From sequence record NC_054933.1: a stretch of DNA of 64,000 nt; one strand, written 5' to 3'. The notes beneath the pieces are model-generated. The model was given only the letters and a program-made list of their open reading frames with translations, searched no databases and was not told where the DNA came from. The stretch comes from Escherichia phage teqhad. This document shows positions 8,857 to 50,272 of the stretch, one piece after another. Numbering within the stretch: position 1 is the stretch's first letter; the number at the start of each line of letters is the position of its first letter. The translations under genes were made by a program, and so were the position numbers.

Positions 8857-9457
8857 GGTGTCTTTTCCATCCTAATTTAGCTGCTTTTGAAACCAGTTCT
8901 TTAATTTTTCCTTTTGTCCATTCAGGACCAGGAGGTTCATGACATAACATTTGCTTAACTCCGTTATTATACCATTTTTTACCTTTATTATGTGATGAAG
9001 CTTTAAATTTATTTGACCTTCCTTTTACATAACCTTCTGGAATATAAGGCAAAAAGGCAGATTTTCCTGTTAATGGATCATGTGAATGTATATTTCCTTT
9101 ACAATTATGAGAACCATATAATGGATGATTTTGTCCTTTATTATCTCTTCCAAATGAACCTTTTGGAGCAGCATATGACATATTAAAGAATAATGGATTT
9201 TTAACTGCATCATGCAATCGTTGATAATATAACTCGCATTTAATAGCTTCTTCACGCGTATCAAATTCAGCTAAAATGCATGAATCAAATAAGTGAGGAT
9301 TATCTGAAAGCTCTTTATTATAAATTTTCTTATACTTTTTAGATAAAACTGAACCATGATATCCAGCTAAATGCCTATCTAAAGACGTAGATCCAATATA
9401 AAAAGGAGGAAGTTTATCTCCACTATATATTGTTAAATAAGTTATATATTTTTTCAT
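8834..9457 (-). CDS. GIY-YIG-type (Seg-like) homing endonuclease
   Basis: 207 aa; N-terminal YITYLTIYSGDKLPPFYIGSTS matches GIY-(10 aa)-YIG spacing; NHPLYG element; lysine-rich C-terminal tail. Confidence 0.65.
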   Translation of the reverse strand: MKKYITYLTIYSGDKLPPFYIGSTSLDRHLAGYHGSVLSKKYKKIYNKELSDNPHLFDSCILAEFDTREEAIKCELYYQRLHDAVKNPLFFNMSYAAPKGSFGRDNKGQNHPLYGSHNCKGNIHSHDPLTGKSAFLPYIPEGYVKGRSNKFKASSHNKGKKWYNNGVKQMLCHEPPGPEWTKGKIKELVSKAAKLGWKRHHENTKLG

Positions 9458-18579: not shown

Positions 18580-18900
18580 TTATAGCGTAATCCATTCTCG
18601 TACTATCTGAGTTACTACACGTTCACGGGGCTCGACTAGTTCAACAGTCGGAACTGCATAATACCAGTCAGAATGATAAGAACCTGACCGAGATTCATTT
18701 ACCGCTACATGTACATTATGTTTTGGACTAAAGTAAACACACTGACGATATTGGCATTTACCATCTTGCACCCAGTCTTCTATTTCGATAGGTTTAAGAT
18801 AATCGGAAAAATCGAAATCATAGTTTTCCGAAAATGCATCATGGTCTTCAATGATTTCGCTCAGAACTGCATCAACATCTAATTTATTTTCAATAGTCAT
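18580..18900 (-). CDS. hypothetical early protein
   Basis: 106-aa ORF. Confidence 0.5.
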   Translation of the reverse strand: MTIENKLDVDAVLSEIIEDHDAFSENYDFDFSDYLKPIEIEDWVQDGKCQYRQCVYFSPKHNVHVAVNESRSGSYHSDWYYAVPTVELVEPRERVVTQIVREWITL

Positions 18901-19560: not shown

Positions 19561-19962
19561 TTATTCCTTAATTCCTAGTACTTGTTTAAAAGTCTCGTCG
19601 TAATCAAGACTTTGGCCCGTTTGTTCTTTATGTTTGTATATAATATCACTTACTTCTGATAGCATATTTTTATATGAACGAGTTAAAGCAGATTTAAGCA
19701 CGCTGTATCTATCAGGAAATTTACCATGTTCATTATAATACGCTATTGCTAATTCACGGACTGCCTTTTCAGCAGTCTCCATATATTCTTTACGCTTTGT
19801 CATTTTCTTCTCGGTCAAATCGGTGTTTACAATGGCGGCATTTATAACGAAGATTACTAGTCTGCCAATGAACCAATTGCACCTGTTCAGTTCCACATTC
19901 AGGGCAATTAGGAACGTTTTTAGAAGCCCTTTCGCGACGTTTAACCATAGCCATAATGGCAT
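19561..19962 (-). CDS. hypothetical protein (probably starts internally near [13 protein letters not shown])
   Basis: Track ORF overlaps the upstream gene; C-terminal part soluble and helical. Confidence 0.4.
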
Positions 19963-20086
19963 CCCATGCTGGAGGTTTAAAATCTAAATCGTCAGTAACT
20001 AGCAGTCCTTTATCAAACCCAACGCATGGAGTCCATTCAGGAAAATCTGAAGCTTCGGCAATATCTTCTAATAAACGCTTTTTCAT
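19790..20086 (-). CDS. zinc-ribbon protein
   Basis: 98 aa; CPECG...CRHCKH four-cysteine ribbon. Confidence 0.5.
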
Positions 20087-21009
20087 TTCAGTACCTCAAT
20101 AGCATCACGTAAACCATTTGCTTTGGCGGTTAAAGCCTTAATAACTTTAGTATGCTCTTCAATCTGTTTTTCAACTTCAATCAAACGGGCACTGAGATAT
20201 TCGCGTTCTTCTTTCATAGTATCATTCCCATGATTGGGCTTTGGCGTAGGTTTAAATTTATTAGGGTCCTTTAACTTAATAACAACTTTAGTTTCAAACA
20301 GTGAAAGACCATAATTCGTATTATCATCAAAGGATTCAACTACGTCCATTTTAGACAATAACGTACGAAGATTATAAGTCAAAGAACGAATCGTTTTATT
20401 ATGTTTATTAGCTTCACATGGTTTCATATATGGAAGATTTTTATATATTTCATGCGGAGCACAAACAATAATTGACAATTCAAATGGTCCATTCTGTGAT
20501 GATGGAATGAATTTAGCCGTAACCCAATCTTTTACATTTACATTAATAGTACGATCATCGCCATGACAAAACAGTCTACGAGAATGCTTAAAAATCATAT
20601 TCACATTATTATTAAATTCGTGTGAAAACTCGCTGGCAAATTTTTCTTTACTATTTTTAGAAAACCATTCTTCTAAATAAGTTCTTTTCACGTCATTAAT
20701 AATATTAAATGTAACAACATTAGCATTTGATACATTAGTCTCAATGTAGCTTGGATACATAAATTTTTTAACATTATTAACAGCTATCACAGAAGATAGT
20801 AATCGGGAACGTTTGAACCACTCGAGCAAAGAACCAAGAGAATGTGAATACGCATTTTGTGTATCTTTACAAATATGGTTTTCCCATCCAATATAGTCTA
20901 AAAAATCACGAAGAATATTATTGATTACTGCTCTGTGTCCTATCTGATAATTACGATGTTTAGTAATAAGACTGTCAAAATAATCAATATAATGTTTACG
21001 AGTTTTCAT
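20083..21009 (-). CDS. hypothetical protein, member 1 of a tandem coiled-coil paralog family
   Basis: 308 aa; C-terminal heptad-rich segment; shares S-T-x-L...MDVV motif with the next three ORFs. Confidence 0.6.
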   Translation of the reverse strand: MKTRKHYIDYFDSLITKHRNYQIGHRAVINNILRDFLDYIGWENHICKDTQNAYSHSLGSLLEWFKRSRLLSSVIAVNNVKKFMYPSYIETNVSNANVVTFNIINDVKRTYLEEWFSKNSKEKFASEFSHEFNNNVNMIFKHSRRLFCHGDDRTINVNVKDWVTAKFIPSSQNGPFELSIIVCAPHEIYKNLPYMKPCEANKHNKTIRSLTYNLRTLLSKMDVVESFDDNTNYGLSLFETKVVIKLKDPNKFKPTPKPNHGNDTMKEEREYLSARLIEVEKQIEEHTKVIKALTAKANGLRDAIEVLK

Positions 21010-21061
21010 GTTCTTCTCACTTGGTTAATGATTTATACTCCGAGCCATCCTTGGCTTTAAA

Positions 21062-22063
21062 TTACTTAATTAACTGTAAAGCTTGTTCAAGACGATCCAG
21101 GCGATTAACAGATTCTTCCCAAATCCTTTTAGCCTGCTCATATTCTTTCTGCGCTTTATTAGAAATTTCTAGAACTTCTTTATAAGCTTTTTCTAATGCA
21201 ATAACTTCTGGACGAATTTCTACCGGTTCAGGCGAATCATCAAGATTATCCATTAGTTCCTCAAGTGTAGTTTCTTCTTTAGGAGTATTCACAATTTCTT
21301 CACATTTTTGTTGGTAAATTTCTTTATCAGTTAGTGAATAAGCACATTTCACTTCACGAAGGCTAATTACGAGTTTATATCCTTCCCAACCGCATATATT
21401 CTTAAAAGGATATGTATGAATATTTTCTACTGTTTCCATACAAAGTAATGCGGTCTCTAATTGACGAGTTATAGTGCTAGCAATTGAGAAAAATTTATTA
21501 ATATTCTTTTGGTTAGTTTCTGGTGTAAAAAATCCATAATTCACAAAAATAGCTACTTTATTTTTATCAAGTTCATATTCTTTTATGATAATCATATCAG
21601 AAGCCAAAGGATGAATTTGACGATAATCGCCATAACATAATTTAGAAGCTGATTTTAGAATTTGCTTCTTGAAAAGTCTGAAATTACTAATCCAACGACG
21701 AGTAAAAATATTCTCAGGGTCTTCTTTATTATTGAGATGATAAGAATTAACATCACCGAACCAATTATATCCTACTACATCTTTAGTTCGTTTAATTTCT
21801 TTCCCAAAATTACCAAGAATATCCCGATTAACCAAATATGAAAGAAGACGAGACTCTTTAAAGGTTTTCTTGATAACATCTTTATCTACACGGCTAGAAA
21901 TTTTACGAATTTCATGAATAAATTTAGTAGAAGAAACAATACCTGCATCAACACTATTGAGCCATTGATTGATAATAGAAAGAACGCTATTTTGGCCAAA
22001 CATCGGTATAGCTTTATCATCAATAACGCTATTGAATGATTTGATATATTCGTTACGAGTCAT
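21062..22063 (-). CDS. hypothetical protein, member 2 of the tandem coiled-coil paralog family
   Basis: 333 aa from MTRNEYIKSF (ATG 22063-22061, GAGGAG SD); the track start lies upstream of the promoter -10. Confidence 0.6.
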   Translation of the reverse strand: MTRNEYIKSFNSVIDDKAIPMFGQNSVLSIINQWLNSVDAGIVSSTKFIHEIRKISSRVDKDVIKKTFKESRLLSYLVNRDILGNFGKEIKRTKDVVGYNWFGDVNSYHLNNKEDPENIFTRRWISNFRLFKKQILKSASKLCYGDYRQIHPLASDMIIIKEYELDKNKVAIFVNYGFFTPETNQKNINKFFSIASTITRQLETALLCMETVENIHTYPFKNICGWEGYKLVISLREVKCAYSLTDKEIYQQKCEEIVNTPKEETTLEELMDNLDDSPEPVEIRPEVIALEKAYKEVLEISNKAQKEYEQAKRIWEESVNRLDRLEQALQLIK

Positions 22064-22091
22064 ATTAATCTCCTCAGTAGAAAGTAAGAAC

Positions 22092-22121
22092 ATTATACCA
22101 CATCCTTGTGGCAAAGTAAAC
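22092..22121 (-). promoter_or_regulatory. T4-type early promoter
   Basis: Minus strand GTTTAC - 18 nt - TATAAT with TG extension; -35 abuts the upstream stop codon. Confidence 0.6.
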
Positions 22122-23140
22122 TAGTTCAGTGCATTTAGTGCATTGTTCAGTTTAGAACGTTGCTTCATGAGATTTTTGACTTTTTCTTGTGCTTTTTCTA
22201 GCATCTTTTCAGCTTCTAGCACTTCATTGGTCGCTTTAACGAGTTCATCATCTACTGCCTTAAGGGACTTCTCAATCGCATCCGCGTGCCATTTTTCAAC
22301 AGGTTTAAGACTCGGATTTTCAATAGGAAGAAAATTCACTTTATTGAATTTCCATGCATCTTTATTGCCTGAACTATACATCCAAAATTTAGGATCGTTT
22401 GATGAGTAATTAGATAAATTTAAGTTATCTTGCACTTCTTGCTTTTTCTCTTGCGGGACTTCGTCCTTTCTCAAAAAATCGTATTTAAATGAAACGATCA
22501 TATCAAGTTCATATGTTGTTGTATGTTCCCAATTTCGCTCAAAACGAGGTAAAATCTTAGAATGAACAGCGGCAACAACATCCATATACTTAAATGCTTC
22601 TGTCAACTGCGATTTAAGGCATTCGCAAATTGAAAGAGAATTTTTTGTATTAGGTTTAAAGCTAATTCGTGCAGTTCTATTATTTTCTTTTAATGGTCTT
22701 ACTTCCATCTGAAGAGTATAACCATCAAATTTCAGGTTCTTTAAGTTAATGTCAGAACCTTTTAATCGACTAGCCGTCGACAAAATTTGCTTTAATTGTT
22801 TACGGAATAGAGCAATAAATCTCCATTCAATACGATAATGATTTGGATTGAAAAATCCAGATGATAAATCGACCTTACTCTGACCAACACCTTGAACAAA
22901 CAGAGGATTTTTATAATCAATAGTTTTACAGAAATCGGTGAGCTGCTCACGAGCAGTCATTTGTGTAATATACCCCGCTTTACTAAAATGACGTAACCAT
23001 TCACTGCTATTCATATATTTAAAGTGAATATCACGATTAACTTTATCAGGGTCTAAATTATTTTGGCACAAAAATGTCATAACATCACGAGTATAGCTGG
23101 CATTACGAACCATATCTTCAATTTGAGAACGAGTTTTCAT
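22121..23140 (-). CDS. hypothetical protein, member 3 of the tandem coiled-coil paralog family
   Basis: 339 aa; EWRFIALFRKQLKQILSTASRL similar to RWISNFRLFKKQILKSASKL in member 2. Confidence 0.6.
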   Translation of the reverse strand: MKTRSQIEDMVRNASYTRDVMTFLCQNNLDPDKVNRDIHFKYMNSSEWLRHFSKAGYITQMTAREQLTDFCKTIDYKNPLFVQGVGQSKVDLSSGFFNPNHYRIEWRFIALFRKQLKQILSTASRLKGSDINLKNLKFDGYTLQMEVRPLKENNRTARISFKPNTKNSLSICECLKSQLTEAFKYMDVVAAVHSKILPRFERNWEHTTTYELDMIVSFKYDFLRKDEVPQEKKQEVQDNLNLSNYSSNDPKFWMYSSGNKDAWKFNKVNFLPIENPSLKPVEKWHADAIEKSLKAVDDELVKATNEVLEAEKMLEKAQEKVKNLMKQRSKLNNALNALN

Positions 23141-23148
23141 GGTGTTCC

Positions 23149-24036
23149 TTAAGATTTAAGTAAATCAACAATTTTAATTAACTTTTCACGCTCAGATTTA
23201 GCTTTACTACTCAATCCAGATAGTCTAAAGATTTCATCGTCATATTGTTGAATAGAAATATTCAGCTCTTCAATTTGCTTATTAAAATAATCAATTTGTT
23301 CAGAATGTTTTTCGTTACTACGAACTGGTACAGGTTTTGTAGGAAATTTAGTTAAACTGGATTCATCCGGGCGATAAATTAAAATACAATTTGAACCAAT
23401 CGGGCATTTAGCACCAGACACATATTCTAATGTTCCAGCTTCCTTTAAAACTTCAAAAGCTAAACAGAGATGATGCCCCATATTGACATAATCTGTAGAG
23501 TGAGCTCTGACGTAATAATCATCTCCACGAGTGCTAAATTTAAAGCATTTAAGGTCTTCTGTATTATTAGTTTTAAAAATCATTTGTTTATCTAAACCTT
23601 TAGCTAATCGAGCGCCTAATGCTAATAATCGTCGTTGATTTTCCCACAAATCCGCAATCATTTGATCGAATGACAATTTCGGCATTAGTCGACCATAAAG
23701 GTCATATCCTTTATTATAATTGCGAAGGATTTCACTCGCATTAATACGAGACAACGCTCCAATTTTATTAAGGGCTTTCATGATGCGATTAGATAAACCC
23801 ATTCCAGACCCATTTGTTCGTTGTAAATGTTTTTCTAATCCAAATCCAATATCAACTTTAAATTTATCTAAAATTTCAGCATGAACATCTCTGTCAATAA
23901 CATTCAAATCCAAAGTTGGGTTAAATCTATGAAAAAATTTATCTGGCTCTCCACGACGAAGTACAGTCCATTCATTTAATTTTTTATTAACTAAAGATTT
24001 AATTACTGCATTGACATTATTAATTACTACTGACAT
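23149..24036 (-). CDS. hypothetical protein, member 4 of the tandem coiled-coil paralog family
   Basis: About 295 aa from MSVVINNVNAV (ATG 24036-24034; track start is TTG); C-terminal coiled coil. Confidence 0.55.
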   Translation of the reverse strand: MSVVINNVNAVIKSLVNKKLNEWTVLRRGEPDKFFHRFNPTLDLNVIDRDVHAEILDKFKVDIGFGLEKHLQRTNGSGMGLSNRIMKALNKIGALSRINASEILRNYNKGYDLYGRLMPKLSFDQMIADLWENQRRLLALGARLAKGLDKQMIFKTNNTEDLKCFKFSTRGDDYYVRAHSTDYVNMGHHLCLAFEVLKEAGTLEYVSGAKCPIGSNCILIYRPDESSLTKFPTKPVPVRSNEKHSEQIDYFNKQIEELNISIQQYDDEIFRLSGLSSKAKSEREKLIKIVDLLKS

Positions 24037-24047
24037 ATTTTTCTCAC

Positions 24048-24452
24048 TCAATTTTCAATTTTACTAAATACACAGAATATGATGGAAAAGACTATATAAG
24101 CACCGCATACAGATTGAACTAATACCATTCCAAAGAACCAAACAATATTATCAAACAATGTCTGTTTTACGTCGAAAGGACGTAAACTTACAGTAATATT
24201 ATCGCCTTTTTCTATTGATGAATACATCTCTGGTGAAATATATTCACTAAATCTATAACCGTCTTTGAGTTCATATACGGCAATAAACGATAAACTAGAC
24301 CCCTTTCCTTGAGTTCCTGTAAGGGTATTAACTACAGTAACATCATAATCTTTATAATGCATATAATCATTAATTGCGTAATAACCATATGCAACTACTA
24401 CACATAAACAACATATCAATAAATTCAATCTTTTAATTATCAACTGTTTCAT
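24048..24452 (-). CDS. membrane protein with N- and C-terminal hydrophobic segments
   Basis: 134 aa; LLICCLCVVVAYGYYAI and FFGMVLVQSVCGAYIVFSIIFCVF. Confidence 0.5.
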   Translation of the reverse strand: MKQLIIKRLNLLICCLCVVVAYGYYAINDYMHYKDYDVTVVNTLTGTQGKGSSLSFIAVYELKDGYRFSEYISPEMYSSIEKGDNITVSLRPFDVKQTLFDNIVWFFGMVLVQSVCGAYIVFSIIFCVFSKIEN

Positions 24453-24481
24453 AATAATCTCAATTAAAAGGGCTTAGAACC

Positions 24482-24504
24482 ATTATACCATCCTTGGTAT
24501 AAAG
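24482..24504 (-). promoter_or_regulatory. promoter candidate (MotA-box-like GCTTTA plus -10 TATAAT)
   Basis: Minus strand cGCTTTAta, 12 nt spacer, TATAAT. Confidence 0.4.
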
Positions 24505-24507
24505 CGG

Positions 24508-25035
24508 TTATGCGAGTACCGTCTTTAACCGTTCTTCAAACTTCCGAAGAGTATTCTGGCGTTCAGCTCTTTGCTTTTTGTAAGTTTCAATACGCTCTGA
24601 AATGAGAGTGTATCGTTCATTTACTGATTCTTTCATAAAATCAGGAATTTCACGAGAAGCTTTAATCTCATCAAATTTATCAATAACAGCTTGCTCTTCA
24701 GCAATTAAGTTATCATACATCAAAATATCTTTCTTGATGAACTCAATATCTTCTTGAGTTACACGAGATAATTTAGATGCTTTATCCTTTTTGTACTGTT
24801 CGTTAGTATCACGAGACCAGTGTAATGTACGATTTTTATTCGTATTTTTGTAAATTTCTACAATACCAATCTCATCAATAATAACGATCCAATTCCAACG
24901 GGATTTGTAAATTTGTCCTCCATCAACCGTGATTTCACCTCCGATTGAGATGTCATTAAAGAACTTGCTTTGTGCTTCTGATTTAAATTTACCATCATTG
25001 TAATTTACCAGGTTGAAAATATCTTTAGCGTTCAT
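24508..25035 (-). CDS. hypothetical early protein
   Basis: 175 aa; ATG at 25035-25033 with GGAGG SD. Confidence 0.55.
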   Translation of the reverse strand: MNAKDIFNLVNYNDGKFKSEAQSKFFNDISIGGEITVDGGQIYKSRWNWIVIIDEIGIVEIYKNTNKNRTLHWSRDTNEQYKKDKASKLSRVTQEDIEFIKKDILMYDNLIAEEQAVIDKFDEIKASREIPDFMKESVNERYTLISERIETYKKQRAERQNTLRKFEERLKTVLA

Positions 25036-25063
25036 TTTCTGTTCCTCCGTAGTTGATAGTTGT

Positions 25064-25093
25064 ATAGTACCACAGAGGAACAGTCTTGTAAAC
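25064..25093 (-). promoter_or_regulatory. T4-type early promoter
   Basis: Minus strand GTTTAC - 18 nt - TACTAT followed by ACAACTATCAACT leader. Confidence 0.55.
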
Positions 25094-25095
25094 CA

Positions 25096-25410
25096 CTAAA
25101 AGAAACTTCTTTCACAATTTTTTCCACTGAACCATGCGCTCACTGCTTTCTTAGTCTCAGGAGCAGTGTTATCCATAAACCATTCAAAGGCAGCCTTTTT
25201 ATGATTCTGGAGGGCTTCTCGGGCTTTAATCTGCTCACGGTCTATTAACACTAACATATGAGCCTTTCTTGTCACCAAGGGCTTCTTATGATTCTTGGAG
25301 TATTCCCAGTCATTTGTCCAACGCATTGTCGTTGCGAACTGAAATACTGCTTCTTTAATTTTAGTTTCGTAAATTTCACGAGCCTTTGAGTATAACATCA
25401 TTACCTCCAT
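25096..25410 (-). CDS. hypothetical early protein (start probably at the 5th codon)
   Basis: 104-aa track ORF; GGAGGU lies 5 nt upstream of the internal ATG. Confidence 0.5.
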   Translation of the reverse strand: MEVMMLYSKAREIYETKIKEAVFQFATTMRWTNDWEYSKNHKKPLVTRKAHMLVLIDREQIKAREALQNHKKAAFEWFMDNTAPETKKAVSAWFSGKNCERSFF

Positions 25411-25499
25411 TTATCAGTTTAATTCTAGTCATCTTTTTGATGGCAGTCCATATAATCTATTTCTGAACTGCCTTTTTATCTTAGAAGGCCTCTTATGAA

Positions 25500-26468
25500 T
25501 TATTTCAGAAGAGTAACCTCAGCGATTTCTTCCCAACCGTTTTTGTCGGTCATAATAAAGTCAGCAAGATAAAGAGCAGTACGCAGTGAAACATTGCGTA
25601 AACGATTAACATTGACTTTCATCCATGATAATGCTTTATAAGTTTCTTCATCAGAAAGACCACGCTTTTGCATCATGTCAGTTGAAAGAATAACATCTTC
25701 AACCCTGACCATAATTTCTTCATTAGTGTGAACACCCAAATCCAAATAAACTGAGCGGGACACTAATGCTTGTAAATGTGGAGCAAGTTTAGTACCACGG
25801 TCTAATTCGCGGTCAATGTCAACGTTTGTGATAAAAACAATCGTTCCTTTAAATTCAAACTCACGCTCAATGCCTTTTTCTTCTAAGTAAGAAGATGCAG
25901 TGCTCCAGCAGACTTTACGGGTCTCTCCAGTGTCCAGAGCAGCTTTCAGAAGATTAAGAATGTCCATATCAGAGAAAACATCCACATCATCAATCAAAAG
26001 GACAGAATTCTCTTCACGATTATTCCAAAGTTGTTCATAAAGACCGATACCGGAGATTTTACCGTTAATGCTTTTATATTCAATGTATCCATTATCATTT
26101 GCTTTATTTAAAGCTTTATCTAAAGAATACGTTTTACCAATACCTGCTGCTCCCGAGATAATTAATGAACGAATGTTTCCGTTAATAATACCATTCGTCA
26201 TCATTCCCATAACATTAAATCTTTTATTAATGCGGGTTTTCATATCTTCATATGATTCTTTAACTTCTTCAACTTTTACACCATCATATGAAATGTCTGA
26301 TTTGTAAACCCAAACACCGCGACGTTTACCGTCAATTTCAACAAAAACTTTACCATCTCCTTGTGCATCTACCGGAGCATTATCTGGGAACCATTCACCT
26401 AAGAGCTCAAAAGTTCCAGAGATTTCTTTACCGAAGTAGATACCCTTATTGATAGTTACAGTTTTCAT
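25500..26468 (-). CDS. P-loop NTPase (AAA-like)
   Basis: 322 aa from MKTVTINKG; Walker A GAAGIGKT and Walker B VLLIDDVD; GGAG SD. Confidence 0.65.
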   Translation of the reverse strand: MKTVTINKGIYFGKEISGTFELLGEWFPDNAPVDAQGDGKVFVEIDGKRRGVWVYKSDISYDGVKVEEVKESYEDMKTRINKRFNVMGMMTNGIINGNIRSLIISGAAGIGKTYSLDKALNKANDNGYIEYKSINGKISGIGLYEQLWNNREENSVLLIDDVDVFSDMDILNLLKAALDTGETRKVCWSTASSYLEEKGIEREFEFKGTIVFITNVDIDRELDRGTKLAPHLQALVSRSVYLDLGVHTNEEIMVRVEDVILSTDMMQKRGLSDEETYKALSWMKVNVNRLRNVSLRTALYLADFIMTDKNGWEEIAEVTLLK

Positions 26469-26502
26469 TTTATTCTCCAAATCCGTATCAGTTGATAGTT
26501 GT

Positions 26503-26532
26503 ATAGTACCATAAAGCTTTATGCTTGTAAAC
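26503..26532 (-). promoter_or_regulatory. T4-type early promoter
   Basis: Minus strand GTTTAC - 18 nt - TACTAT with A/T-rich UP-like tract. Confidence 0.55.
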
Positions 26533-26562
26533 CGTTTTGTGAAAAATTTTTGAAATAAAAAA

Positions 26563-26580
26563 GGGAGCCCGAAGGCTCCC
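26563..26580 (-). terminator. UUCG-tetraloop hairpin followed by a U-run
   Basis: Minus-strand RNA GGGAGCC-UUCG-GGCUCCC then UUUUUU. Confidence 0.6.
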
Positions 26581-26582
26581 TA

Positions 26583-27596
26583 TCATTTATAATAACTTCG
26601 GTGGTTTTCAAGATAGACCTTCTCAAGGAAGTCATCCCAGAAACCCATGTCTACTTTTTGCTGCATACCGTTCTTAGAAGCTTCAGTAGATGCTGCTTCT
26701 ACTTGATCGACCACATCTTCCAAAAACTTTTGAACCGTTTTAAATGGATGTTTACCCAACTTCACGTCGAGAATAAATGGAGCGTCTTGAAGTGGATAAA
26801 CCAAGTCACCAGTTTTGTAAATTTCCAATAGTTGAAGTCCACCACGACAAGCATGGCTCAGAGCTTTCCAGTCAATGCCTTCATTGGCTTCGGCCTTTCG
26901 AGCGCGTTCACCATATTCAGCATCTAATTTGTTCAGTGACTGCTTAAGCTCAATAAGAGAAAGCGTTGTCTGATATTTACGACCCAGCACTGTATAGAAC
27001 GTTTGTGGACCTGTTTTCTCATGATTATGGAACACCCATTCACAGAATTCGTTTTCTGGAAGACGATGCTTAATATCTTCAACTTTAGTACGACGCTGCT
27101 TAATGGAACCGTCTTCTTGGTAATCAACCCATTGCTCAGGGATTTGATTAACTACTTTCAATACATCACGTAATGCAGCCAAACGAGAACCCTTGACGCC
27201 GTATTTAGAAGCTTGCTTGCGGACATATCCTAAATAGGATTTCATGTTAGTCGTATAAAAACGAGAACGGTTGTCTTGAATAAACTTCCACACATCAGGC
27301 AAATCAGATTTAACCACTAGTTCAGGTGGAGTGTGAAGCATATCCAATGCTACAGTTTCACCATCTGCTGCTAATTTAAAGAAATATTTAAGACTGTATA
27401 GTTCATGGTCAATATCATCTTTAGTGTTTTTAGATGATGTGTTGTTAGTGTTTTTACTCATGTGCTCTTTGACATTTCCGACAAGAATATCGCGAGCAGG
27501 AGGAACAAAGATTTCTTTAAAATCTACATCAGATTCTGGGGTAGAAGTTCCATAAAGATGACTACCAAAATAGCTTTTCATTACTGTTTTCATCAT
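26583..27596 (-). CDS. protein with minimal nucleotidyltransferase-fold (pol-beta-type) motif
   Basis: 337 aa; N-terminal FGSHLYGTSTPESDVDF matches the hG[GS]x9-13DxD motif, third acidic residue in VALDMLH. Confidence 0.6.
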   Translation of the reverse strand: MMKTVMKSYFGSHLYGTSTPESDVDFKEIFVPPARDILVGNVKEHMSKNTNNTSSKNTKDDIDHELYSLKYFFKLAADGETVALDMLHTPPELVVKSDLPDVWKFIQDNRSRFYTTNMKSYLGYVRKQASKYGVKGSRLAALRDVLKVVNQIPEQWVDYQEDGSIKQRRTKVEDIKHRLPENEFCEWVFHNHEKTGPQTFYTVLGRKYQTTLSLIELKQSLNKLDAEYGERARKAEANEGIDWKALSHACRGGLQLLEIYKTGDLVYPLQDAPFILDVKLGKHPFKTVQKFLEDVVDQVEAASTEASKNGMQQKVDMGFWDDFLEKVYLENHRSYYK

Positions 27597-43458: not shown

Positions 43459-43534
43459 TGGTCGAGGCAGTAGGGATCGAACCTACGACCCAGGACTTAG
43501 AAGGTCCTTGCTCTTCCTTCTGAGCTATGCCCCG
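43459..43534 (-). tRNA. tRNA-Arg (anticodon UCU)
   Basis: Manual fold: acceptor CGGGGCA/UGCCUCG, anticodon loop CUUCUAA, T-arm GUAGG-UUCGAUC-CCUAC, CCA encoded. Confidence 0.8.
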
Positions 43535-43538
43535 TAAT

Positions 43539-43614
43539 TGGGGTGACCGATGGGAGTCGAACCCATGACTACGAGAATCACAATCTCGAGTTCTACCAAC
43601 TGAACTACGGCCAC
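43539..43614 (-). tRNA. tRNA with anticodon GUG (His by anticodon; C73 present, no encoded G-1)
   Basis: Manual fold: acceptor GUGGCCG/CGGUCAC, D-stem GUUC/GAAC, anticodon stem CGAGA/UCUCG, loop UUGUGAU, T-loop UUCGACU, CCA encoded. Confidence 0.6.
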
Positions 43615-43728
43615 ATTAATACCTACTCCAACAATCAAGATGTCTTCACACGAAATTAAGAGAAGAGTGATCAGTTCAACCCCTATAATCGCGTCAAGTA
43701 GATATTAATGTGACAGTTGTCACAAATT

Positions 43729-43803
43729 TGGCGGACGTGATAGGATTCGAACCTATAACCAATCGCTTAACAGGCGATCGCTCTGCCATTGAGCTACACA
43801 TCC
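43729..43803 (-). tRNA. tRNA-Asn (anticodon GUU)
   Basis: Manual fold: acceptor GGAUGUG/CACGUCC, anticodon stem AUCGC/GCGAU, loop CUGUUAA, T-arm AUAGG-UUCGAAU-CCUAU, CCA encoded. Confidence 0.7.
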
Positions 43804-43807
43804 AAAT

Positions 43808-43894
43808 TGGTGGGGAGTGGTGGAGTCGAACCACCCGAGTCGCAATGACAATGGATTTACAGTCCACACCGCTACCTCTACGGGATAACTCCCC
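43808..43894 (-). tRNA. tRNA-Tyr (anticodon GUA), long variable arm
   Basis: Manual fold: acceptor GGGGAGU/ACUCCCC, anticodon stem GUGGA/UCCAU, loop CUGUAAA, T-arm GGUGG-UUCGACU-CCACC, CCA encoded. Confidence 0.65.
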
Positions 43895-43907
43895 TTAATT
43901 CTTAATT

Positions 43908-43982
43908 TGGTGGCCCTGGGTGGAATTGAACCACCATCTGGCGATTATGAGTCGCTTGCTTGAACCTTCCAGCTACAGGGCC
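43908..43982 (-). tRNA. tRNA with anticodon CAU (Ile-type as in T4, or Met)
   Basis: Manual fold: acceptor GGCCCUG/CAGGGCC, anticodon loop CUCAUAA, T-arm GGUGG-UUCAAUU-CCACC, CCA encoded. Confidence 0.65.
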
Positions 43983-43983
43983 T

Positions 43984-44059
43984 TGGTGCTGATTGACGGA
44001 ATCGAACCGCCGACCTTCTCATTACAAGTGAGTTGCTCTACCTACTGAGCTAAATCAGC
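43984..44059 (-). tRNA. tRNA-Thr (anticodon UGU)
   Basis: Manual fold: acceptor GCUGAUU/AAUCAGC, D-stem GCUC/GAGC, anticodon loop CUUGUAA, T-loop UUCGAUU, CCA encoded. Confidence 0.75.
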
Positions 44060-44064
44060 AAAAC

Positions 44065-44154
44065 TGGCGGAGGCGATAGGATTTGAACCTATGAGTCGCC
44101 GGAGCGACTGCCGGTTTTCAAGACCGGTGCATTAAACCACTCTGCCACGCCTCC
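44065..44154 (-). tRNA. tRNA-Ser (anticodon UGA), long variable arm
   Basis: Manual fold: acceptor GGAGGCG/CGCCUCC, anticodon stem CCGGU/ACCGG, loop CUUGAAA, T-arm AUAGG-UUCAAAU-CCUAU. Confidence 0.75.
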
Positions 44155-44156
44155 AG

Positions 44157-44230
44157 TCTCCATACAAGGATTTGAACCTTGGACCTCCTGATCCCAAATC
44201 AGGCGCTCTACCAAACTGAGCTACACGGAG
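44157..44230 (-). tRNA. tRNA-Pro (anticodon UGG), CCA not encoded
   Basis: Manual fold: acceptor CUCCGUG/UAUGGAG (G-U pairs), anticodon stem CCUGA/UCAGG, loop UUUGGGA, T-arm CAAGG-UUCAAAU-CCUUG; 2 nt from tRNA-Ser. Confidence 0.7.
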
Positions 44231-44240
44231 TAAATTAAAT

Positions 44241-44314
<74 letters not shown>

Positions 44315-44319
44315 AAATT

Positions 44320-44406
44320 TGGTGCGAGAAGTGGGACTCGAACCCACAAGGAAATCATTCCGCAGCATTTTAAGTGCTGTGCCTTTACCAATTTGACCAT
44401 TCTCGC
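44320..44406 (-). tRNA. tRNA-Leu (anticodon UAA), long variable arm
   Basis: Manual fold: acceptor GCGAGAA/UUCUCGC, anticodon stem CAGCA/UGCUG, loop CUUAAAA, T-arm GUGGG-UUCGAGU-CCCAC, CCA encoded. Confidence 0.75.
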
Positions 44407-49820: not shown

Positions 49821-50272
49821 TATGCCCCCTTAAAGCCAAGAGCTCGTAATCCATCTTCTGTTAGAATTCTAAATTTTATTCCACGCTTTTCAGCTAAAGC
49901 TTGCGCTGCTTTCCATTTATCAGTATTAACGGAATATGTATAAATTTCATTCATAAATCTTTTCTTCGCTGCAGTTGTTAGATGTGCTGGTTTAACTGGT
50001 GGTTGTGTTTCTTTTTTAGGTTTTATTTCAATAAAAAATTCTTGTCCAGAAGAATCTTTCATCCAAATATCCATGAAGTATCTACGTTTTTTCCCTTCTG
50101 CATTACAAAAATAAGGAATTACTGCTGTTTCACTACCCCATGCAATAATTTCTGGATTTTTATCTAACCATTCAAAAAAGAATTTTTCCCAATTTGATCT
50201 ATACGTAATTTTTTTAGGGTCACCTCTATATTTTGATATATTTTTAGGAACCCATTTTCCAGAATATGCCAT
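49820..50272 (-). CDS. 4: head completion protein
   Basis: 150 aa; synteny. Confidence 0.75.

Follow-up and report, generated by a model that had tools for sequence, protein, structure and literature searches.

The question raised by one accessory region of Escherichia phage teqhad is whether four consecutive genes on the same strand are diverged copies of a single gene and, if so, what such a set does for the phage. The region lies in the 64,000-nucleotide (nt) stretch of sequence record NC_054933.1 analyzed here (referred to as the window). A sequence-only reading of the window had described a tandem array of four proteins, and four consecutive minus-strand open reading frames (ORFs) were confirmed there. 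Going by the T4 annotation, they are nrdC.3, nrdC.4, nrdC.5, and nrdC.6 of a Tequatrovirus; in the comparisons, the proteins were lettered A (NrdC.3), B (NrdC.4), C (NrdC.5), and D (NrdC.6). Lengths are in amino acids (aa).

20083 to 21009, minus strand: nrdC.3, 308 aa, 96% identical to T4 NrdC.3; match to phrog_1435 with an E value of 5.9e-101
21062 to 22063, minus strand: nrdC.4, 333 aa; match to phrog_1435 with an E value of 9e-168; homologs carry PF26897 (Phage_T4_Y04OP)
22121 to 23140, minus strand: nrdC.5, 339 aa, 93% identical to T4 NrdC.5; match to DUF7235 with an E value of 2.6e-125
23149 to 24036, minus strand: nrdC.6, 295 aa; match to phrog_2257 with an E value of 2.5e-152; homologs carry PF26899 (Phage_T4_Y05B)

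The array lies in a dispensable accessory block that extends from nrdC to mobD. Its 3.95-kb sequence matches more than 500 Tequatrovirus genomes; Yersinia phage fPS-65 is the best match (98.4% DNA identity), and T4 matches at 96.4 to 96.5%. All four genes occur together in about 460 to 500 Tequatrovirus genomes, and three of the four array proteins are identical to Escherichia phage teqhad entries (NrdC.3 is QHR63441). The results below support the view that the four proteins are old paralogs, much diverged from one another, within a single superfamily specific to the Straboviridae, based on sequence profiles for NrdC.3, NrdC.4, and NrdC.5 and mainly on predicted structure for NrdC.6. They also make it probable that the array is a diversified set of early anti-defense genes, with each paralog inhibiting a different host immune protein.

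Relationships among the four proteins

Pairwise comparison, which the sequence-only reading had named as what could refute the similarity, carried part of the claim: NrdC.3 and NrdC.4 were significantly similar by BLASTP (E value of 3e-4), and no other pair was. A MAFFT alignment of the four sequences alone (19 to 27% identity) was uninformative. Profiles were built from orthologs of other genera and compared by hhalign, and these tests linked all four proteins. NrdC.3 matched NrdC.4 with 98% probability (E value of about 1e-13 [2.6e-13]), and NrdC.3/4 matched NrdC.5 with 96.7% probability over 232 columns (E value of 3.5e-10). With the globular domains only, and without a bridging Klebsiella sequence, the match of NrdC.3/4 to NrdC.5 had a probability of 80% over 165 columns (P value of 1.4e-5). 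As a control, 17 to 18 unrelated families from the same loci scored 20 or less, compared with 41 to 52 for NrdC.4/NrdC.5. The profile of NrdC.6 on its own gave P values of only 0.02 to 0.04 (A4 versus A7, 0.036; A4 versus A6, 0.021). Enlarged with the Mosigvirus ortholog and with g087 of Yersinia phage phiR1-RT, the NrdC.6 profile matched NrdC.3/4 with 67.8% probability (E value of 4.9e-5) and NrdC.5 with an E value of 6.6e-4. Significant profile scores arose only with members from other genera, and the alignments among NrdC.3/4, NrdC.5, and NrdC.6 were all in the same register.

Predicted structures provided a second line of evidence. AlphaFold2 monomer models of NrdC.4 (predicted local distance difference test [pLDDT] score, 77.6; predicted template modeling [pTM] score, 0.62) and NrdC.6 (pLDDT, 77.0; pTM, 0.65) were both of moderate confidence, and their elements run in one common order: helices at the N terminus, a pair of helices, a beta-hairpin, a single helix, another beta-hairpin, a linker of low confidence, and a long terminal helix. 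The helix pair bears the "RWISNFRLFKKQILKSASKL" motif noted in the earlier reading. In Foldseek searches of BFVD, the NrdC.4 model matched NrdC.3 of fPS-65 (E value of 7.8e-8), and the NrdC.6 model matched the same entry (E value of 9.7e-4; probability, 0.99). The two models had eight Foldseek matches to Straboviridae proteins in common. Both matched full-length uncharacterized proteins of about 310 to 375 aa (E values of 1e-4 to 1e-8) from Acinetobacter phages fHyAci03 and Acj9, Pectobacterium phage PM2, Klebsiella phage Mineola, Enterobacter phage IME523, and Erwinia phage Cronus. A protein of Serratia phage CBH8 matched both models more weakly (E values of 2.0e-4 and 1.7e-3). A homologous globular domain was thus found in all four proteins by profile or by fold, and the weakest case is NrdC.6 by sequence.

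On these hhalign and Foldseek results, the proposal of diverged tandem paralogs stood. The motifs cited for it were less general. Starts of the MKTR/MTRN type are present in three of the four proteins, while NrdC.6 begins MSVVIN; MDVV, said to be in all four, is present in NrdC.3 and NrdC.5, is METV in NrdC.4, and has neither form in NrdC.6.

Existing databases keep NrdC.3/4, NrdC.5, and NrdC.6 apart, in three families that are not linked to one another and have no assigned function. NrdC.5 scored 418.4 bits against DUF7235, for which the Pfam gathering threshold is 30 bits; NrdC.3 scored 12.7 bits, NrdC.4 and NrdC.6 gave no match in that scan, and none of these three proteins qualifies as a member. 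NrdC.3 and NrdC.4 both belong to PHROG 1435 by full-length profile match, so their paralogy was already on record. PF26897 is carried by all NrdC.4 homologs and by the NrdC.3-derived part of a chimeric protein (P0119), an assignment taken from homologs rather than from a direct scan. NrdC.6 belongs to PHROG 2257, and PF26899 is carried by every one of its homologs found (105 of 105). Searches of Pfam and NCBIfam returned nothing except DUF7235 for NrdC.5, and no relative of solved structure turned up when PDB sequences were searched with NrdC.5 or with the profiles of NrdC.3/4 and NrdC.6.

The genes, the NrdC.3/4 family, and the function of NrdC.5 were already known. What appears to be new, and is incremental, is the functional prediction and the union of three database families with distant Straboviridae relatives. 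By profile and fold matching, the superfamily would also take in proteins of about 300 to 370 aa from T4-like phages of Acinetobacter, Klebsiella, Pectobacterium, Erwinia, Serratia, and Yersinia. Location at the same locus was confirmed for the Acinetobacter and Klebsiella relatives, and the Pectobacterium, Erwinia, Serratia, and Yersinia relatives were found by fold search only.

Architecture, copy number, and divergence

The four proteins have a common plan: a helical N-terminal part and an alpha/beta core, then a flexible linker, and at the C terminus an amphipathic heptad helix. The globular domain, comprising the N-terminal part and the core, spans about 225 to 260 aa and is basic (isoelectric point [pI] of 9.1 to 9.6; net charge of +7 to +12), with no CxxC motif. 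The linker is Pro rich or acid rich, and the terminal helix is about 46 to 57 aa long. The linker and helix were seen in the AlphaFold2 models of NrdC.4 and NrdC.6, and the heptad pattern was seen by periodicity in all four proteins, as the sequence-only reading had it. The P values below are for 3-4 hydrophobic periodicity compared with shuffled sequences.

20086 to 20223, minus strand: NrdC.3 heptad helix, aa 263 to 308; P = 0.02
21065 to 21208, minus strand: NrdC.4 heptad helix, aa 286 to 333; P = 0.006; single helix at aa 285 to 332 in the AlphaFold2 model
22124 to 22294, minus strand: NrdC.5 heptad helix, aa 283 to 339; P < 0.001
23152 to 23313, minus strand: NrdC.6 heptad helix, aa 242 to 295; P = 0.001; broken at SGLSS

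In NrdC.4, the linker (aa 261 to 285) is acidic and disordered (charge of -7; pLDDT below 50). In the best 28-aa window of the NrdC.5 helix, every a/d position is hydrophobic, and the NrdC.6 model places helices at aa 242 to 271 and aa 277 to 294. Remote relatives show the same C-terminal pattern. The helix probably oligomerizes each paralog.

The nrdC.6 reading frame of the T4 reference record (AF158101.6) has a 1-nt deletion relative to the window (9064 to 9140 in that record; approximately position 23215 in the window). NrdC.6 is annotated there at 275 aa owing to this deletion, and half of the C-terminal helix is gone; in other T4 records, such as T4T, the protein has 296 aa. The likely cause is an error in sequencing or a mutation in the laboratory strain.

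In many Straboviridae, the family locus is the nrdC.10-nrdC interval, and it holds one to four copies. Tequatroviruses have four. Loci of the Dhaka- and Gaprivervirus types have three (NrdC.6-, NrdC.5-, and NrdC.4-like), as does Mosigvirus (NrdC.6-, NrdC.5-, and NrdC.3-like); Acinetobacter phage Acj61 has a tandem pair; and Acj9, fHyAci03, and Klebsiella phage P545 have one copy each. At the locus downstream of nrdC.11 in Enterobacter phage EBPL and Klebsiella phage Lemur (Pseudoteven- and Slopek-type), no family member was found. Different parts of the single P545 protein matched two hidden Markov models (HMMs): the globular domain matched that of NrdC.3/4 (E value of 8e-11), and mainly the linker and helix matched that of NrdC.5 (E value of 3e-10). 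Such a combination could reflect an exchange of modules between paralogs or could be ancestral. The C terminus of this protein (Klebsiella vB_Kpn_P545; locus L018, 16699 to 17646) is NrdC.5-like and reads …QRGKLLRAIQALK, compared with …QRSKLNNALNALN.

Between genera, the four paralogs are 24 to 55% identical, compared with 67 to 92% for NrdC, NrdC.8, NrdC.10, and NrdC.11. In every orthologous group, conservation is higher in the C-terminal helix than in the globular domain. A globular domain that outpaces the helix, and far outpaces the flanking genes, is as expected for an arms race. In addition, nrdC.3 exists as two Tequatrovirus alleles that are about 61% identical. By tblastn, 135 records were at least 90% identical to the allele in the window and 329 fell in the 60 to 80% band; the window carries the rarer allele. 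The neighboring nrdC.2 (19790 to 20086) likewise has two alleles, with about 61 to 66% protein identity. The nrdC.3/nrdC.2 split (loci L004 and L006) is found among Tequatroviruses whose flanking genes are 97 to 100% identical, and such sharp alleles amid near-identical flanks suggest allele replacement by recombination.

Rearranged arrays were also seen in two metagenomic T4-like contigs (L023, 3570 to 4900; L024, 1931 to 3261). There, nrdC.4 is lost, and an N-terminal nrdC.5 fragment of 115 aa precedes a fusion ORF of 299 aa in which NrdC.5 residues of about 146 to 270 are joined to NrdC.3 residues of about 139 to 308. The junction (NKVN/NNVN) is at nonhomologous positions.

Probable anti-defense function and its alternatives

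The sequence-only reading had suggested that families of this kind target variable host factors, and for one of the four proteins this is borne out by published genetics. Neither ECOR17 nor MG1655 with dsr1 supports growth of a T4 clone with compensatory deletions (PMC9391042), and plasmid-borne T4 nrdC.5 allows this deletion phage to plate again on dsr1+ cells (PMC9391042; Srikant, Guegler & Laub 2022). Dsr1, the protein counteracted, is a sirtuin defense protein (PMC9391042). The ORF at 22121 to 23140 is the ortholog of this T4 protein (Y05A; DUF7235/PF23882), at the same position and with no material difference; the other three array proteins are its distant paralogs, at about 20 to 27% identity and below the DUF7235 threshold. 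An anti-defense role is thus on record for NrdC.5, and NrdC.3, NrdC.4, and NrdC.6 would share it by virtue of homology, location in an anti-defense island, early/middle expression, and arms-race-like evolution of the globular domain.

Neighboring genes correspond to inhibitors of other defenses. T6 Gp49.2 inhibits OLD (PMC13096335), T4 NrdC.1 inhibits Septu, and bas37_0203 of phage KarlGJung inhibits Druantia III (both bioRxiv 10.1101/2025.11.20.689424). Their counterparts in the window are as follows:

18580 to 18900, minus strand: gp49.2, 97% identical to T4
19561 to 19803, minus strand: NrdC.1, 100% identical to T4
24508 to 25035, minus strand: NrdC.8, 175 aa, two genes upstream of the array, in the 90% cluster of bas37_0203

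With inhibitors of OLD, Septu, Druantia III, and Dsr1 located there, the stretch from 49.2 to nrdC.8 behaves as an anti-defense island. We considered bas37_0203 as one of the four paralogs and rejected it, since it is an NrdC.8 homolog by 90%-identity cluster; no significant profile link was found between NrdC.8 and the four paralogs. NrdC.8 ends in a long charged helix (…KKQRAERQNTLRKFEERLKTVLA).

Promoter and Shine-Dalgarno (SD) signals place the array among the early/middle genes. The earlier claim of a promoter or SD sequence at each junction held for the SD sequences, and a single canonical promoter was found inside the array, the remaining junctions having SD sequences only.

22092 to 22120, minus strand: T4 early-type promoter at the nrdC.5/nrdC.4 junction, TTTACT-17-TATAAT with TG; 10 of 12 positions matched in the scan

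The fPS-65 annotation has a "predicted early promoter" at the equivalent site upstream of nrdC.4, and a middle promoter is predicted upstream of nrdC.7 in that phage. A GAGGAG SD sequence precedes the nrdC.4 ATG at 22063, and the start of the 343-aa nrdC.4 given in many records overlaps the -10 hexamer of the promoter. The nrdC.6 stop is 8 nt from the nrdC.5 start and is overlapped by the SD sequence, so these two genes are probably translationally coupled. The SD sequences of nrdC.3 and nrdC.6 are weaker and purine rich.

In loci L007 to L015, a gene for a 71-aa predicted membrane protein lies between the nrdC.6-like and nrdC.5-like genes:

L007, 5844 to 6059: 71-aa membrane protein gene
L010, 5857 to 6072: 71-aa membrane protein gene
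L014, 5942 to 6157: 71-aa membrane protein gene

As a working mechanism, we infer direct target binding combined with helix oligomerization. Transcribed early or midway in infection from the promoter before nrdC.4 and the predicted middle promoter upstream of nrdC.7, each paralog would inhibit a separate host immune protein, with the fast-evolving globular domain binding the target. For NrdC.5, the target would most plausibly be Dsr1 itself, for example, its tetratricopeptide repeat (TPR) sensor. The better-conserved, paralog-specific C-terminal helix would oligomerize the inhibitor and so give it avidity against oligomeric defense proteins.

A more specific version of this mechanism can be framed from the Dsr1 TPR sensor domain, which is reported to be common to Avs7 and about 9,000 other defense proteins and to be triggered by a phage major capsid protein (PMC12803255, a 2026 preprint). 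The globular domains could act as decoys that jam the ligand-binding grooves of different sensors of phage structural proteins; candidate targets would be the TPR sensors of Dsr1, Avs7, and thousands more, with the coiled coil providing avidity. In the predicted models, the alpha/beta core resembles phage tail-terminator proteins, although none of the paralogs could be assigned to the tail terminators themselves (lambda gpU-like; PDB 3fz2, 2gjv, and 6tba). We consider this version doubtful. If true, the four T-even copies would map onto four sensor lineages of Enterobacteria, and the single copies of Acinetobacter and Klebsiella phages would map onto the sensors of their hosts.

Several points weigh against reading the array as diverged paralogs with separate anti-defense targets. 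The sequence link of NrdC.6 became significant only after two distant members were added, and membership of one of these, phiR1-RT g087, is marginal (family-HMM E value of 0.0012 in a pool of 77 ORFs). Low-diversity alignments gave a weak NrdC.5 comparison (A2 versus A3; P = 0.009), and the fold identity of NrdC.5 rests on profile comparison. HMMs of the C-terminal helices failed to detect the other paralogs, except for that of NrdC.5 with the Klebsiella P545 protein, which makes the helices a matter of shared architecture rather than of demonstrable sequence homology. A literature search found no function for NrdC.3, NrdC.4, or NrdC.6. Because the evidence on NrdC.5 is genetic, NrdC.5 might affect Dsr1 only indirectly, and basic globular domains would also suit nucleic acid binding.

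The last two of these points also support the idea that the proteins serve general early host takeover, bind nucleic acid, or mask phage components, with the NrdC.5 effect on Dsr1 arising indirectly, for example, by hiding the trigger. Masking is conceivable because Dsr1-type sensors are reported to be triggered by the major capsid protein (PMC12803255). However, searches of Pfam, NCBIfam, and PDB sequences found no nucleic-acid-binding domain, rapid divergence and allele replacement fit a protein-protein arms race better than housekeeping, and the surrounding genes are specific defense inhibitors. We regard this explanation as unlikely, if the least so among the rivals considered here.

Slightly less likely in our judgment is that the four proteins form one hetero-oligomeric complex through their C-terminal helices and do one job, whether against Dsr1 or in some other early host takeover. 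Each of the four proteins closes with a heptad helix, and the terminal patterns of these helices are similar (L-x-x-[AI]-[ILV]-x-x-L-K); the genes are cotranscribed in two adjacent units, and all four are present together in the roughly 460 to 500 genomes cited above. Yet NrdC.5 supplied on a plasmid is by itself enough for rescue of the deletion phage on a dsr1+ host (PMC9391042); the helix sequences are paralog specific and do not cross-detect; and relatives have one to three copies, with natural variants that lack nrdC.4 and have a disrupted nrdC.5.

It is also conceivable that only NrdC.3 and NrdC.4 are paralogs and that NrdC.5, NrdC.6, or both are unrelated proteins with a converged architecture and chance motifs. 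The nonsignificant BLASTP scores and the three separate families in Pfam and PHROGs would be expected in that case, as would the low-diversity profile comparisons, in which P values were only 0.009 to 0.036. In an exhaustive HMM scan of 1.84 billion representatives, the NrdC.3/4 profile likewise retrieved only 10 clusters and no bridge to NrdC.5 or NrdC.6. In contrast, diverse profiles linked NrdC.5 and NrdC.6 to the pair in three alignments that agree in register, background families at the same loci scored far lower, the NrdC.4 and NrdC.6 models share full-length BFVD matches, the NrdC.6 model matches NrdC.3, and a single-copy Klebsiella protein matches both the NrdC.3/4 and the NrdC.5 HMMs. 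Convergence is thus improbable.

That the four are thioredoxin-like redox proteins, as database labels alone ("thioredoxin"; "Thioredoxin, phage-associated") would have it, has next to no chance of being correct: none of the four has a CxxC motif or a thioredoxin or glutaredoxin Pfam match, the predicted folds are unrelated, and we rejected this identity. For the same reasons, the label is an annotation artifact, evidently spread from the nrdC.x names, which record only a position beside nrdC. In the window (20083 to 27596) and in many GenBank and UniProt records, nearly all nrdC.x products are called "thioredoxin," even the nucleotidyltransferase NrdC.11 and the membrane protein NrdC.7.

Comparison with known systems, other features of the window, and significance

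A set of separate anti-defense proteins, the reading that we favor, has two partial parallels. DSAD1 of phage SPbeta binds and neutralizes the defense-associated SIR2 NADase DSR2 (PMC10973363, PMC11087589) and can be regarded as a functional analogue of NrdC.5. DSAD1 targets DSR2 rather than Dsr1 and has no C-terminal heptad helix or tandem array; the two are likened by function alone. The capsid-packaged, injected proteins of T4 are also diversified and dispensable, share one conserved module, and target different host defenses (PMC9391042; bioRxiv 10.1101/2025.11.20.689424). That module is an N-terminal targeting sequence, which is all that they have in common, and in sequence and architecture they are unrelated to NrdC.3 to NrdC.6.

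Elsewhere in the window, 10 tRNA genes (Arg, His, Asn, Tyr, Met, Thr, Ser, Pro, Gly, and Leu) are located at 43459 to 44406 on the minus strand, overlapping a GC-rich bin at 42 to 44 kb. T4 has eight tRNAs, and the set in the window appears to be different. The cluster includes tRNA-Tyr, which is reportedly the Septu target in T6. The GC skew switches sign near 50 kb (approximately position 50000), which is consistent with a strand change where the early-gene block gives way to genes read in the opposite direction.

Even in T4, which has been studied more than any other phage, a large part of the early accessory genome lacks an assigned function. The relationships described here turn NrdC.3, NrdC.4, and NrdC.6 from "hypothetical proteins" into specific candidates for novel immune-evasion factors and correct a widespread misannotation as thioredoxin. 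The combination of a variable globular domain and a conserved helix amounts to a natural domain-swap design, which may be used to find the targets of the individual paralogs and to work out how sensors of the Dsr1 type are inhibited.

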